From: Clostridia bacterium
GTDB taxonomy: Bacteria; Bacillota; Clostridia; TANB77; UBA1234
Reading direction: 5' to 3'
Length of the DNA: 64,000 nt
NCBI GenBank assembly: GCA_017539905.1
Contig: JAFYBZ010000022.1
Span: 77,191-141,190, forward strand
The notes beneath the pieces were generated by a model. That model did no database searches and was not told where the DNA came from. It was given only the letters and a program-made list of their open reading frames with translations. Below, one piece after another: positions 2,060-60,263 of this stretch (positions within the stretch are counted from its first letter, which is position 1; every line of letters starts with the position of its first letter). Made by a program: the position numbers and the translations under genes.

Positions 2060-3211
2060 ATGGATTGGCCTATAAAATATGAACTAATTAAAAAGGATGC
2101 AAAGACAGGTGCAAGGCGAGGAAGAATTTATACACCACATGGTGTAATTGAGACACCTGTATTTATGCCTGTAGGAACACAAGCAACTGTAAAAGCAATG
2201 ACACCTGATGAATTAAAAGAGATGATAGATGCTAAGATTATATTGGGTAATACTTATCATTTGTTTTTAAGACCTGGTGATGAATTAATAAGAGATGCTG
2301 GTGGACTTCATAAATTTATGAATTGGGATAGAGCTATATTAACAGATAGCGGTGGATTCCAAGTATTTAGTTTAGCAAAACTTCGTGATATTTCTGAAGA
2401 AGGTGTTAAGTTTAAATCACACTTAGATGGAAGTGAATTGTTCATATCTCCAGAGAAATCTATATCAATTCAAAATAATTTAGGTTCGGATATTATGATG
2501 AGTTTTGATGAATGTTGTCCATATCCATCAGATTATGAATATACTCGTAAATCAATGGAAAGAACAACACGTTGGGCAAAACGTGGCTTAGACGCACATG
2601 CTAAAAAAGATACTCAAGGACTATTTGGTATTGTTCAAGGTGGAATGTATAAAGATTTAAGAGAGAAAAGTGCAAAAGATTTAGTTGCTATGGATTTTGC
2701 TGGATATAGTGTAGGCGGATTATCAGTTGGAGAACCAGCTGATTTGATGTATGACATTTTAGGACATACAACTAAATTCTTGCCAGAAGATAAACCAAGA
2801 TATTTAATGGGCGTTGGAAGTCCAGATTATTTAATAGAAGCCGTTTTAAATGGAATTGACATGTGCGATTGTGTTTTACCAACACGTATTGCTCGTAATG
2901 GAACAGCAATGACACATCATGGAAAAGTAGTAGTAAGAAATGCAACTTACGAAAGAGACTTTACGCCACTAGATCCAGAATGCGATTGCTATACATGTAA
3001 AAATTATACAAGAGCTTATATTAGGCACCTAATAAAAGCAGGAGAAATTTTGGGAGCAAGATTACTAACAATTCATAATTTATATTTCTTAGTTAATTTG
3101 ATGAAGAATGTTCGTGAATCAATCGATAATGATCAATTTTTAGAATTTAGAGAAAAGTTTTATAAAGATTACTATGGAGATAACCCTCCAACAATGACGA
3201 AATGCAACTAG
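2060..3211 (+). CDS. tgt: queuine tRNA-ribosyltransferase
   Basis: [41 protein letters not shown] and the zinc-site CDCYTC motif are typical of Tgt. The last codons TGC AAC TAG lie inside the repeat unit at 3203. Confidence 0.93.
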
Positions 3212-3263
3212 GGGACGGTTCTCAAGTTGCATCACGCAACCGGGGGACAGGTCTTAAGTAGTA
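3203..3263 (+). repeat. REP-like array, 2 units (A then B variant), forward orientation
   Basis: tgcaactaggggacggttctcaagttgca, then tcac, then gcaaccgggggacaggtcttaagtagta. Confidence 0.9.
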
Positions 3264-3286
3264 TTTGATATAAAAGGAGAGTACAA

Positions 3287-3703
3287 ATGAAAAATCAAAA
3301 AGTTGCAGATGCGCTAATTTATATTTTTGCGCGAACCATTTTGCAAGTTATTTGTTCATCGCTTGGGTTTATAGGTTTGCTTATGGGAAGTGAACCACTA
3401 ATTATAGGTGGACTAATTGGAGGAGTCATTTTATATATTATCCTTTCAATCATTCCAAACTTATTTATAAAAACAAAAGAATATGGATGGGTTACTTTAT
3501 TTAATTTTATATCTGTTATTGCTTATGGAATTTTGAATTTTATAGTATTTTTGTTAGTAAACCTATTCTACAAAAGTTCTGAGTTAGGCTTAGTTGTTTT
3601 AGTTTGGGTTTTTGCACTTATTAGTGTTGTTGCATTCAATTTTTTTGTAAATTTGATTGCAGATTTGATAGCTTGTTTAGTTATTAAAAAGAAGAAGGTG
3701 TAA
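3287..3703 (+). CDS. small multi-pass membrane protein (138 aa)
   Basis: GGAG RBS. About 4 hydrophobic segments. Paralogous to the next ORF (shared pattern ...TLFNF(I/L)S...NLI(A/V)DLI). Confidence 0.7.
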   Translation: MKNQKVADALIYIFARTILQVICSSLGFIGLLMGSEPLIIGGLIGGVILYIILSIIPNLFIKTKEYGWVTLFNFISVIAYGILNFIVFLLVNLFYKSSELGLVVLVWVFALISVVAFNFFVNLIADLIACLVIKKKKV

Positions 3704-3708
3704 TACAA

Positions 3709-4140
3709 ATGAAAAATAATGCGGTTAAAGGTTTAGTTTTTATTATAATTAGAACGATTTTAGAAGCCATTGGGGTGGTGCTATTTACACTTACTCTAAA
3801 TCTTCAAGTTTCAAATGTCGTTGTTTTTGGTTTAATAGTATTTGCTTTTATAAACATATTTTTGGCAATTATTCCGCACTTTTTTGTTAAAGATATTTCA
3901 TTTGGCTTTATGACATTATTTAATTTTCTTTCACAAATTGTTTTGGCGGGTGGAATGTTTGCTTTATTATTGTTCTTTTGCATAATAGATACGAGCGATG
4001 CTGCTGGTTGGCTTATATTTTTGCTTATTTTTTATTATGTTTTTTTTATACCAGTTGCGTTTATTGTTAATTTAATTGTTGACTTAATTACTTATTTTGT
4101 TATGAAAAAAATTAGAGGAGGAGTTAAAAATGAAAAATGA
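3709..4140 (+). CDS. small multi-pass membrane protein, tandem paralog (143 aa)
   Basis: Same architecture and conserved motifs as 3287..3703. Confidence 0.7.
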   Translation: MKNNAVKGLVFIIIRTILEAIGVVLFTLTLNLQVSNVVVFGLIVFAFINIFLAIIPHFFVKDISFGFMTLFNFLSQIVLAGGMFALLLFFCIIDTSDAAGWLIFLLIFYYVFFIPVAFIVNLIVDLITYFVMKKIRGGVKNEK

Positions 4141-4510
4141 ATTAGTTATTTACAAATGTGAAATGTGTGGAGAAGAAGTTGAAATCTTAAATGGTGAATG
4201 CAGAAGTTTAACATGCTGCGGACAAGATATGGAAGAAGTTGTAGCTAATACAGTAGATGCAGCTGTTGAAAAACATGTTCCTGCATATGTCGTTAATGGT
4301 GATGTAATTGAAGTTACTGTAGGTGAAGTAGAGCATCCTATGGCTGAAGATCATTACATTGAATGGATTGCTCATGTATATGAAAATAGAATTTGTAAAG
4401 TTAATCTTAAACCTGGTGAAAAGCCCGCAGCTAAATTTGCATATAAACCAGGTGCAACTTTATACGCTATGTGCAATAAACACGGGTTATGGAAAATTGA
4501 TGTTGAATAA
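4130..4510 (+). CDS. dfx: desulfoferrodoxin (superoxide reductase, 2Fe type)
   Basis: N-terminal desulforedoxin-like CEMCGEEV...TCCG, then neelaredoxin-like EKHVP, HPMAEDHYIEW, CNKHGLW. Confidence 0.88.
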   Translation: MKNELVIYKCEMCGEEVEILNGECRSLTCCGQDMEEVVANTVDAAVEKHVPAYVVNGDVIEVTVGEVEHPMAEDHYIEWIAHVYENRICKVNLKPGEKPAAKFAYKPGATLYAMCNKHGLWKIDVE

Positions 4511-4516
4511 ATTTAC

Positions 4517-58488: not shown

Positions 58489-58521
58489 TTTTGACGACAA
58501 ATAGTCGCCGTTACAAAAGAG

Positions 58522-59799
58522 GTGAGTATCACGGATAAAGAAGAAGAAAAAGTCAAAGTCTGTTATTCTAAAAATCCCTTAAGCTTTGATGAGTTGGAAG
58601 AATTTAGAGATGAAGATGGATTTATTGATTTAGAAAGAGCAGACTTAATAATTGCAGAAGGCTCTAGAAACCAAATAGGTAGCGCTGATATATTTAAGTA
58701 TTGGGTAGATTTTGCTGGCACAAAAGTTTTATTAAAAGAACAAAAGAAACTTGAAAATGAAGAAAATGGTACTATTTATTCTGAATTATATATGCATGAA
58801 TTGTGTGAAGAGATGGATATAGAATCTGCCCATACTGATGTTTTCAAAATTGGTAATATAAAAGGTGTCATTTCTTTTATGGCTTTTGATCCAGAAAAAG
58901 AAGGTCTTATTTTGACTCGTGAGTTAATTGGAGACATGCAAGTTGATGGTGATGCTTATGATTATAATTCTGTTGAGATAAGAATCGAGGAAGAATTAGT
59001 TAGACAATTTAAATTATCAAAAAAAGAAGCTCATAAAGTAGTTTTAGAGAGAAGACTTCAAAAAATTTTACAACTATATGCATCAGAAATGGACAACCAT
59101 ACAGAAAACGAAGGATTTTTATTTAAAAGGAATGAAGATGGCAGTTACAATATTAGATTATGTCCGATGTTTGATAATGAACGTTCATTTGGATTGTACT
59201 CTAGCTATTCTGAGATGATGAGTGATGCTTTATATGATTCATTAGAAAGAAGAACCCCAATTTTAAGACATATGGTTAAATCTTTACGCAGAGGTGAAGA
59301 CTTATCTAAAAGTGAAATATCATTATTATATGAATTTTCTTCAAAAGAAGAAATAAGAGATGTTTTGCTTGGAAATATGAATTCTAGGATAAGAGTCGGT
59401 AGTAATGGAATGCAGATTATGCTTGATGATAGTAAGTTGCCTAAGTTTTTCTCTTTAACAGATGCAACTCTGGCAAAACTTTATATGGATTCAAAAAGTA
59501 TTATTGATAATCCTGATGCAATAGATAATGATGAATTAATTTGTCATAAGAGAATAGTAAGACTTGTAGATTCCTTAGAACAAGTTGAAGCGGAAGAATT
59601 AATAGAAAACATTGAAAATAAACTTTCAATTCCTTCAACTATTAAAACTCAAATATCTCGTTTTTCAAGAATGAAATCAGAAGTACTTCATTTTGCTCAA
59701 TTAGGAAGAGGTGAAGTTAGTTTCTATGAAGAAATGGCGGATTTGTTGCTTAAAGAAAAAGAGAAACTATTGAATAAAAAACAAGAAATAGATTTATAG
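58522..59799 (+). CDS. HipA-family (HipT-like, N-terminally short) Ser/Thr kinase-like protein
   Basis: SEMDNHTENEGFLF...YNIRLCPMFDNERS aligns by eye with E. coli HipA ATDGHAKNFSVF...YRLTPFYDIIS (DxHxxN catalytic loop plus Mg-binding D). SELYMHELCEEMDIESAHTDVF aligns with NEYYCLLLAKELGLNVPDAEII. The GTG start is uncertain. Confidence 0.55.
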   Translation: MSITDKEEEKVKVCYSKNPLSFDELEEFRDEDGFIDLERADLIIAEGSRNQIGSADIFKYWVDFAGTKVLLKEQKKLENEENGTIYSELYMHELCEEMDIESAHTDVFKIGNIKGVISFMAFDPEKEGLILTRELIGDMQVDGDAYDYNSVEIRIEEELVRQFKLSKKEAHKVVLERRLQKILQLYASEMDNHTENEGFLFKRNEDGSYNIRLCPMFDNERSFGLYSSYSEMMSDALYDSLERRTPILRHMVKSLRRGEDLSKSEISLLYEFSSKEEIRDVLLGNMNSRIRVGSNGMQIMLDDSKLPKFFSLTDATLAKLYMDSKSIIDNPDAIDNDELICHKRIVRLVDSLEQVEAEELIENIENKLSIPSTIKTQISRFSRMKSEVLHFAQLGRGEVSFYEEMADLLLKEKEKLLNKKQEIDL

Positions 59800-59828
59800 T
59801 TGACATAAGTATAAATAGAGTATATAAT
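59800..59828 (+). promoter_or_regulatory. consensus sigma-A promoter
   Basis: TTGACA, 17 nt, TATAAT; it begins right after the stop of the kinase-like gene. Confidence 0.7.
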
Positions 59829-59860
59829 ACTTAAGATTTAAGATTAAGAGGTGATTGCAC

Positions 59861-60130
59861 ATGAGGGAATTTCAGGTGTATTACAGCGGACTGTATATTG
59901 GGAGACTTGTTATTAATGAGGAAGGCAAATACTATTATGCATTGAATGATCACTTTAAAACCATTTGCTTCTTTGAGGGTAAAAATGTTGCTCCTGCTTT
60001 ATATACTGAACAGAATGACTTTGGCGATCCGATTCCTTATTTCCAGGTTCGTATCGAGGCTAATGACAAACATAGAGGGCTTGAAATCGGCTTGGTTACG
60101 GATGAGGTTCGCTTGAAAGAGGTTTACTAA
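59861..60130 (+). CDS. small protein (89 aa), possible HipS/HipA-N-subdomain-like
   Basis: ATG 59861 after GAGGTG. FQVYYSGLYIGRLVINEEGKYYYAL loosely matches the HipA N-terminus LVTWMNNQRVGELTKLANGAHTFKY. G+C higher than the flanks. Confidence 0.5.
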   Translation: MREFQVYYSGLYIGRLVINEEGKYYYALNDHFKTICFFEGKNVAPALYTEQNDFGDPIPYFQVRIEANDKHRGLEIGLVTDEVRLKEVY

Positions 60131-60149
60131 CTAGACTAGAGATAGTTCC

Positions 60150-60263
60150 TGCAACTAGGGGACGGTTCTCAAGTTGCACGATGCAACTTAAGAACCGTCC
60201 CTTTGTTGCGTAGACCTGTCCCTCGGTTGCAGTGTGCAACTTGAGAACCGTCCCCTAGTTGCA
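60150..60263. repeat. REP-like array, 4 units (A | A' B' A')
   Basis: tgcaactaggggacggttctcaagttgca, cga, tgcaacttaagaaccgtccctttgttgc, gtagacctgtccctcggttgc, agtg, tgcaacttgagaaccgtcccctagttgca. Confidence 0.92.

Follow-up and report, generated by a model that had tools for sequence, protein, structure and literature searches.

This report concerns a 64,000-nucleotide stretch of DNA from a Clostridia bacterium (assembly GCA_017539905.1, contig JAFYBZ010000022.1, positions 77,191 to 141,190), hereafter the window. It holds nine arrays of short palindromic repeats, two of which bracket, in inverted orientation, a gene for a Y1 (HUH) tyrosine transposase. The transposase is related to the REP-associated tyrosine transposases (RAYTs), in which REP stands for repetitive extragenic palindrome. 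Besides the window, the main data comprise approximately 8 kb of upstream sequence from a near-identical contig (L011) and short loci from other genomes. The positions of the features are collected in Table 1.

Table 1. Repeat arrays, single repeats and the transposase gene in the window. A, B and b denote repeat units, with their orientation as + or -; ssDNA, single-stranded DNA.
Feature	Position	Strand	Composition and remarks
Array 1	3203..3263	+	A+ B+; covers the final 9 nt of tgt and provides the TAG stop of this gene
Array 2	4517..4659		A+ B+ b- A- A-; ssDNA fold -54.3 kcal/mol, z = -11.2
Array 3	12330..12426	+	Left inverted-repeat block of the transposase locus: partial arm GCAAC, A+ A+ B+
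Transposase gene	12556..13323	+	TIRYT/RAYT-like Y1 (HUH) tyrosine transposase; 255 aa, C-terminal helix-turn-helix
Array 4	13337..13422	-	Right inverted-repeat block of the transposase locus: B- A- A-
Array 5	15090..15212		A+ A- A- A-; fold -41.2 kcal/mol, z = -8.6
Two single GGGAC-core hairpins with other arms	18398..18487		AGTGTGCAGT...ACTGCACACT with a T-run after it; on the minus strand, a unit of ACGATTTTGG type
Inverted pair of bare A-type cores	21303..21339		GGGGGCGGTTCTAA / TTAGAACCGTCCC, without TGCAAC arms
Single unit with GTCAAA/TTTGAC arms	32655..32681	+	Core GGGACAACTCT; the inverted repeat at homologue locus L042 has arms and core of the same type
Array 6	41809..41954		146-bp composite A+ A+ A- B- A-; a terminator lies on one side and the uvrB 3' end on the other; fold -67.4 kcal/mol, z = -14.6
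Array 7	50244..50389		146-bp composite A+ A+ A- B- A-; nearly identical to array 6, down to one shared linker; fold -71.1 kcal/mol, z = -17.2
Array 8	52871..52975		B+ B- A- A-; supplies the stop of the minus-strand AAA_28 gene
Array 9	60150..60263		114-bp composite A+ A- B- A-

The nine arrays hold 35 repeat units in total (25 A, nine B and one B-like), in agreement with a preliminary description of the window that had placed them at the same coordinates and counted about 35 units by hand. The A-unit consensus, GCAACTAGGGGACGGTTCTCAAGTTGC, is matched 25 times in the window at three mismatches or fewer, and not once in 100 dinucleotide-preserving shuffles; differences among the 25 A units amount to 0-3 mismatches. 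An A unit forms a hairpin of 7-8 bp and displays the conserved motif GGGGACGG in its loop. The B units carry the core GGGACAGGTCT or GGGACACGTCT without a 3' arm, and their GGGACA[GC] core is related to the A-unit motif and matches the published GGGGWSAS motif. The B-like unit is one short palindrome at 4576-4600. Tandem Repeats Finder recovers the previously proposed 32-bp period in seven of the nine arrays; arrays 1 and 9 are missing from its report because they contain too few head-to-tail units. The spacing between neighbouring units is short, as had been described, although the measured range is 3-5 nt rather than 3-4 nt. Together, the arrays span 1,021 bp and have a GC content of 55%, compared with 31.6% for the window. 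An armless partial core, GGGGACGATCC, at 50233-50243 adjoins the left end of array 7.

Several arrays are composites of units in both orientations. An A+/A- junction is present in five of them (starting at 4517, 15090, 41809, 50244 and 60150) and array 8 has a B+/B- hairpin, in agreement with the earlier description of a forward/inverted junction in most arrays. As ssDNA, the A+/A- arrays form long hairpins with folding energies of -41 to -71 kcal/mol (z about -8.5 to -17), with a perfect outer stem of 28 bp in array 2 and 31 bp in array 9. Arrays 6 and 7 are near copies of one composite, of which array 9 is a shorter version. Array 2 has the layout of the transposase locus without the gene: its left B core reads GGGACAG and its right one GGGACAC, the same asymmetry as at the gene. 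The regular spacing and palindromic units give the arrays a superficial likeness to CRISPR arrays, and another structured RNA gene or an assembly artefact could also be considered, although these explanations deserve next to no credence. No spacers are present, with 3-5 nt between units as opposed to approximately 25-40 nt in CRISPR arrays, and Pfam calls on the flanking genes reveal no cas-like context. A scan of the whole window at Rfam gathering thresholds matched no family. Lastly, the arrays are not an assembly artefact, since the independent ENA metagenome contig L011 has the same ones.

Read from left to right, the transposase locus comprises the intrinsic terminator of the upstream SLH gene, array 3, a promoter, a leader hairpin, the transposase gene and array 4. 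The putative promoter is sigma-70-like, with TTGACT and TAATAT separated by 17 nt. The left B core lies 139 nt 5' of the transposase ATG, and the right block starts 13 nt after the stop codon. The flanks form an 84-nt inverted repeat (score 54) whose copies lie 138 nt before and 16 nt after the gene, which identifies arrays 3 and 4 as the terminal inverted repeats of the transposase gene. With seven more arrays elsewhere in the window, this is the arrangement of REP/RAYT systems, in which inverted repeat copies flank the gene. Between the putative promoter and the ribosome-binding site, at 12508-12556, a hairpin (GGGGGCAAAAGTAT...ATACTTTTGCCC; RNA minimum free energy -23.9 kcal/mol) is followed by TTTTTT and resembles a leader terminator or attenuator. 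Leaders of this kind are present at the nearest homologue loci (L012, L015, L050, L099 and L100), but at only about 12 of 73 loci overall.

The transposase itself scores 47.9 bits against Pfam Y1_Tnp (PF01797; cutoff 23) and 21.5 bits against the IS200 model (cutoff 55). Its HUH motif (H60/H62) and catalytic Tyr motif (Y120-IHN-NP125) are invariant in 30 homologues, implying selection for nuclease activity. The C-terminal residues (approximately 45) match HTH_23 (E 1.1e-4) and HTH_28 (E 1.4e-3), both just under the Pfam cutoffs, and helix-turn-helix (HTH) families match up to nine of the 30 homologues. An AlphaFold2 model has a mean pLDDT of 86.7, with a helical C-terminus at residues 209-254. 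The best Foldseek match of this model is 4er8_A, the E. coli RAYT-REP complex (E 2e-6, TMt 0.70), with the IS608 and ISDra2 TnpA proteins ranking behind it. A profile search of PDB sequences also ranks 4er8 TnpA_REP first, and a phmmer search of PDB with the single transposase sequence found nothing. The Y---NP motif is the signature of class 2 (TnpA_REP-like) Y1 proteins (PMC6006769). Judged by this motif and by its greater nearness to RAYTs than to IS200 TnpA, the window protein belongs to that class.

Relatives of the transposase are numerous. At E <= 1e-5, 528 were found in a 90%-clustered database, most of them about 250 aa long. A 50%-clustered library yielded 18,727 matching clusters at E <= 1e-3, of which 110 reach E <= 1e-30. 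The nearest homologues are P0001 (99% identical) and P0002 and P0003 (58-59% identity), and one homologue is labelled Clostridia bacterium. Many homologues, including P0001, sit only on contigs of about 0.9-1.4 kb, which is consistent with flanking repeats breaking short-read assemblies.

The shared HUH/Y1 fold invites comparison with the IS200/IS605 family of insertion sequences (IS), and the arrays could in principle be miniature inverted-repeat transposable element (MITE) derivatives of an ordinary multi-copy IS of this type. For instance, the protein has a Y1_Tnp domain, the TnpA proteins of IS608 and ISDra2 are among its structural matches, and array 2 resembles an element whose gene has been deleted. 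As with those elements, no target-site duplication is evident at the 14 outer junctions compared by eye, and action on ssDNA hairpins is presumed here too. However, this origin is very unlikely. A single transposase gene copy is present in the window and the upstream sequence from L011, as opposed to 35 units in 64 kb, and RAYT models score above IS200 models. The locus has no tnpB partner; the next gene is PLD/cardiolipin-synthase-like. IS608 ends are same-strand left-end and right-end hairpins, unlike the inverted-repeat ends found here. Moreover, homologues of the transposase gene occur singly, between housekeeping genes.

The association between repeats and transposase extends well beyond the window. 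Flanks of homologous genes were compared at 80 metagenomic loci plus several others, a set without P0002 and P0003. At the metagenomic loci, GGGAC[GA] has a preferred direction on either side of the gene: upstream, 64 of 74 flanks have it in the + orientation, and downstream, 57 of 72 have it in the - orientation. Eight flanks on each side show the reverse orientation, and the background expectation is approximately 0.09 per flank. GGGAC also lies within the best inverted repeat shared by both flanks at 47 of 65 loci, and the core conserved across loci is (G)GGGAC[G>A]G. The arms around it vary by locus, yet stay complementary, as in CAGAAAAG/CTTTTCTG, TGCCAAAA/TTTTGGCA and AAAGGACA/TGTCCTTT; 45 distinct arm sequences were counted among the homologue loci. 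The perfect stem around the core has a median length of 7 bp and reaches at least 6 bp in 50 of 73 cases, compared with a median of 3 bp and a share of 6% for swapped partners. Because the best unit per locus was picked before the comparison with swapped partners, the observed stems are somewhat inflated, although the gap is still large. In flanks with both core types, the G-type (A) is distal and the A-type (B) gene-proximal in 11 of 13 cases, as in the window.

Tandem units are common at the flanks of this family, with periods of about 26, 37, 25-27 and 41 nt (L031-L036, L028, L073 and L012), and the 32-bp arrays are thus one case of a general habit. At locus L016, two paralogous Y1 transposase genes (4283-5059 and 10001-10744) are separated by 5 kb, and the inverted repeats that flank them differ between the two. 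This pair parallels genomes that hold several RAYT/REP pairs. Another folding scheme was considered, in which adjacent units form a hairpin with the core 5' of the stem. It fits the tandem arrays as well as L103 and L016, but is impossible for many single-unit flanks. The model with the core in the loop is therefore the general description.

The family, fold and catalytic residues of the transposase, its arrangement in cis with the repeats, the conserved core with co-varying arms, and the polymorphism between strains and species described below point to one interpretation. The repeats are best read as amplified, non-autonomous end-repeats of the RAYT-like Y1 transposase locus, or TIRtron, at 12330-13422, with a probability of roughly 0.7. 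On this reading, the system is a Clostridia-type counterpart of REP/RAYT systems known mainly from Proteobacteria. The preliminary description had also called the repeats REP-like, arguing from their placement near stop codons. It was right about the kind but not about the reason, having overlooked the open reading frame (ORF) at 12556-13323: the repeats are REP-like because the window encodes a RAYT-like transposase bracketed by the inverted arrays 3 and 4.

E. coli TnpA_REP and IS608 TnpA provide a model in which a hairpin is bound on ssDNA, cleaved by a tyrosine and rejoined. By analogy, the window transposase may bind, cleave and mobilise the repeats. It would recognise GGGGAC[G/A]G in a hairpin context on ssDNA, and its HUH/Tyr120 nuclease domain would cut and rejoin the DNA, with the C-terminal HTH possibly helping. 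Units and inverted, REPIN-like composites (A A A' B' A') would be copied in trans to new sites and beside existing units, and this copying, combined with slippage, would build the 32-bp head-to-tail arrays. A contribution of slippage to array length is probable, given that some adjacent units are separated by identical linkers (ACGAC twice in array 3 and CTGT twice in array 2). Copies would persist only where they are tolerated, at extreme gene 3' ends and in short spacers, and this restricted survival would account for the placement of the arrays. Some copies would overwrite the last codons of a gene and give it a new stop.

The gene ends in the window are compatible with such overwriting. 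Every array lies 0-45 nt from the 3' end of some gene, in keeping with the proximity to stop codons reported previously. The further claim that arrays never enter an intact reading frame proved slightly wrong: the final 8-9 nt of tgt, uvrB and the AAA_28 gene (3203-3211, 41946-41954 and 52968-52975) fall within arrays 1, 6 and 8, respectively, which supply the stops of these genes. All three genes end in ...(TGC) AAC TAG, with the TAG stop contributed by the terminal unit ...GCAACTAG. In relatives' proteins of at least 90% identity, Tgt ends in ...TK[L/I]*, compared with ...TKCN* in the window, and UvrB ends in ...EEMI* or ...EELI*, compared with ...EEMCN*. To judge by these C-termini, the repeat replaced the native last codons. 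The related locus L102 has an empty site at tgt, where the stop codon is directly followed by the ribosome-binding site of the next gene, and array 1 is thus an insertion two codons before the original tgt stop.

Comparison between strains, as the preliminary description had proposed, revealed further polymorphism. L011 is identical to the window at 99.8-99.95% over 13 kb, and its array 1 has one additional A unit, a 31-nt indel in otherwise 99.9%-identical sequence. In the relative L103, an array with GGAATT arms and the cores GGGGACGGTTCT and GGGACACGTCT directly follows the uvrB stop, the same place as array 6. It is one of several arrays with the same core and other arms (GGAATT; TTCCC...GGGAA; GTTCAC), which are found at 2987-3175 and 800-900 in L103 and at 1600-1720 and 2880-2990 in L102; the arm families of L102 are different again and sit in other spacers. 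The different arms in such close relatives suggest either repeated colonisation of one site or concerted arm replacement. An exact 20-mer scan of genome contigs located the TGCAAC-arm unit at 10 loci in three other metagenome-assembled genomes (MAGs). These are distant Firmicute MAGs of approximately 48% GC (Clostridiales CROMO_A_104, Desulfosporosinus and Pelotomaculum), in which the units are mostly inverted dimers; JAGXRM01 is an example of the MAGs with this repeat. The motif is thus not confined to the window. The 20-mer of the repeat unit had no match in viral contigs.

The position of the arrays has also been taken to suggest host functions, such as those of terminators, mRNA 3'-end stabilisers or nucleoid-protein sites. 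If the arrays were primarily elements of this sort, the transposase would be incidental or historical. Their consistent proximity to gene 3' ends fits this explanation, as do the very stable hairpins of the composite arrays and the related hairpin at 18398-18431, which follows a stop codon and precedes TTTTTT. Furthermore, terminator, mRNA-stabilising or nucleoid-binding roles have been reported for E. coli REPs (PMC3733652). As the primary explanation, however, host function is unlikely. A T-run follows only two of the seven arrays that lie downstream of a co-directional gene, arrays 3 and 6 are downstream of separate canonical terminator hairpins, and both orientations relative to transcription are found among the units. 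L102, a close relative, has no array at tgt, and the families with different arms at other sites in relatives reflect the turnover expected of mobile DNA rather than conserved regulatory sites. Host function also leaves unexplained why the conserved core flanks about 60 homologous transposase genes in a consistent orientation. The 3'-proximal placement is equally well explained if insertions damaging to promoters or coding sequence are selected against. The host-function and transposase views are not mutually exclusive, and the repeats may have a secondary, co-opted role.

Several observations weigh against reading the repeats as mobilised end-repeats of the transposase locus. The activity of the enzyme on the repeats is argued only by analogy with E. 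coli RAYT and IS608. The score of the protein against the NCBIfam model REP_Tyr_transpos (NF047646), 61.1 bits, is under the curated cutoff of 80, and the protein is a relative rather than an equivalog of canonical RAYTs. No target-site consensus beyond a Y before GCAAC emerged from the 14 outer junctions. The unit that distinguishes L011 from the window could stem from replication slippage or a difference in metagenome assembly, and not from the transposase. In the other MAGs with the TGCAAC-arm repeat, a six-frame search with hidden Markov models found no Y1 transposase gene in the 8-kb loci, which represent a small part of each genome. Lastly, 38 of 53 homologue loci have no dispersed copies within about 6 kb, and amplification is therefore not a general property of the family. 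At the remaining 15, the cognate unit is also dispersed away from the gene, and the window is among the densest cases.

Some of these observations would suit a transposase that is an inactive or domesticated passenger, with arrays that change and spread through replication slippage, recombination and gene conversion only. The absence of dispersed copies at most homologue loci fits this scenario, as do the identical linkers of some adjacent units, which slippage yields, and the difference of exactly one unit between the window and L011. Nevertheless, such a passenger role is improbable. Slippage would be unable to seed nine separate loci or to produce the filled and empty states of the tgt site. 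In addition, one composite recurs at two unrelated loci as arrays 6 and 7, the linkers within arrays 5, 6 and 7 differ from one another, and the catalytic residues are invariant across the family. Amplification from the transposase locus stays the preferred reading.

How this system relates to known ones depends on which features are compared. RAYT-like genes flanked by terminal inverted repeats were named TIRYTs, located in TIRtrons, by Di Nocera, De Gregorio and Rocco (2013, BMC Genomics 14:522; PMC3733652). Many TIRYT repeats contain GGGGWSAS, and some are self-complementary and occur in dimers or clusters, forming moderately abundant families, for example in S. maltophilia K279a (PMC3733652). 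The window likewise has a RAYT-like Y1 gene bounded by terminal inverted repeats, and its gene-proximal left B unit reads GGGGACAG, in agreement with GGGGWSAS. However, the dominant core in this clade, GGGGACGG, has G instead of A at position 7 and is thus one position off that motif, and the head-to-tail 32-bp arrays reach a very high local density. The hairpin with the motif in its loop and the covariation of the arms are absent from the 2013 description. Neither that paper nor the 2010 RAYT paper (PMC2817692) mentions Firmicutes, and the former does not mention Clostridia either.

TIRYTs were later equated with subclass 2.1 of the Y1 proteins, which are long and carry a C-terminal extension resembling HTH_23, HTH_28 or Bac_DnaA_C (Quentin et al. 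2018, BMC Genomics 19:475; PMC6006769). This subclass has a patchy phylum distribution, and no REP-like sequences were found near its genes (PMC6006769). The window protein shares with TnpA_REP-like subclass 2.1/2.1.2 the length, the Y---NP motif and the HTH_23/HTH_28-like extension of a class 2 Y1 protein; its likeness to 2.1.2 is one of features, not of tree placement. In contrast to the published picture, the flanks here and at most of the 80 homologue loci are REP-like stem-loops. Clostridia have also been noted to contain Group 1 RAYTs, whose flanking 16-mers are no more than modestly abundant (Bertels et al. 2017; PMC5581495). From these comparisons (PMC3733652, PMC6006769, PMC5581495), the system emerges as a new and unusually amplified member of the TIRYT/TIRtron group. 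A literature search with the core sequence returned only unrelated eukaryotic primers, with no bacterial context.

With REP/RAYT systems and REPINs (PMC2817692; PMC3116915; 4ER8), the window has in common a transposase gene with inverted flanking short palindromes that are dispersed in intergenic DNA; with one copy in the sequence covered, the transposase may likewise be single-copy. Its inverted dimers form long hairpins, as REPINs do, and its clustered arrays resemble BIMEs. Nevertheless, this is not a canonical REP/RAYT system: the GTAG tag is missing, the NCBIfam score is below cutoff and an HTH is added. Specifically, no GTAG precedes the stem and the arms enclose the conserved motif, the protein is longer by about 90 aa, the arrays are largely head-to-tail rather than strictly alternating, and the host is low-GC and Firmicute-like. 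REPs typically bear a GTAG (or CGTC) tag where an imperfect palindrome has its 5' foot. A GTAG within B units was considered as a candidate REP tag, but it is inconsistent, being present in only four of nine (GTAGACCTGTCCC) with no palindrome of its own after it, and no A unit contains it. New here are the motif-in-loop hairpin, the arm covariation and the stop-codon-proximal insertions.

Apart from the nine arrays, the window contains four singletons with other arms (18398-18487, 21303-21339 and 32655-32681), which are probably relics or members of other sub-families. The hairpin at 18398-18431 has a 10-bp stem and TTTTTT right after a stop codon, and looks terminator-like. The ORF upstream of the transposase locus (5373-12290) encodes a 2305-aa SLH/MBG_2 surface protein with two overlapping internal repeats of approximately 1.15 kb and 87.75% identity at 7719-9803. 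Two long ORFs overlap on opposite strands at 52947-54281 (+) and 52968-54257 (-); the AAA_28 match in the Pfam scan, in which the minus-strand ORF was used, favours the latter. Other gene content includes SLH and dockerin domains and desulfoferrodoxin, which, along with the low GC and the homologue labelled Clostridia bacterium, give the host a Clostridia-like character.

Currently, REP/RAYT work is almost wholly confined to Proteobacteria, and the TIRYTs named in 2013 have seen no mechanistic follow-up in the searchable literature. The window provides a compact Firmicute-type case, with a single transposase gene, bipartite end-repeats (A and B), mini-versions that lack the gene, and about 35 units within 64 kb. 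The comparison across loci separates the invariant motif (G)GGGAC[G/A]G from the freely co-varying arms, which gives biochemistry a defined substrate. It also corrects the view, gained from the literature, that genes of subclass 2.1 have no REP-like sequences beside them. In practical terms, the repeats break metagenome assemblies, as the many homologues on ~1-kb contigs illustrate, and alter annotated gene 3' ends (tgt, uvrB and AAA_28). A broader proposal, tentative and rather more doubtful than probable, is that a large and essentially uncharacterised RAYT branch exists in Firmicutes and gut metagenomes. In this branch, an HTH-bearing Y1 transposase would read GGGGAC[G/A]G in a hairpin loop, unlike the 5'-GTAG-plus-stem mode of 4ER8, and its elements would favour gene 3' ends, rewrite stops and build head-to-tail arrays. 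On this proposal, the terminal inverted repeats of TIRYTs would really be REP-like stem-loops, contrary to the 2018 survey (PMC6006769).

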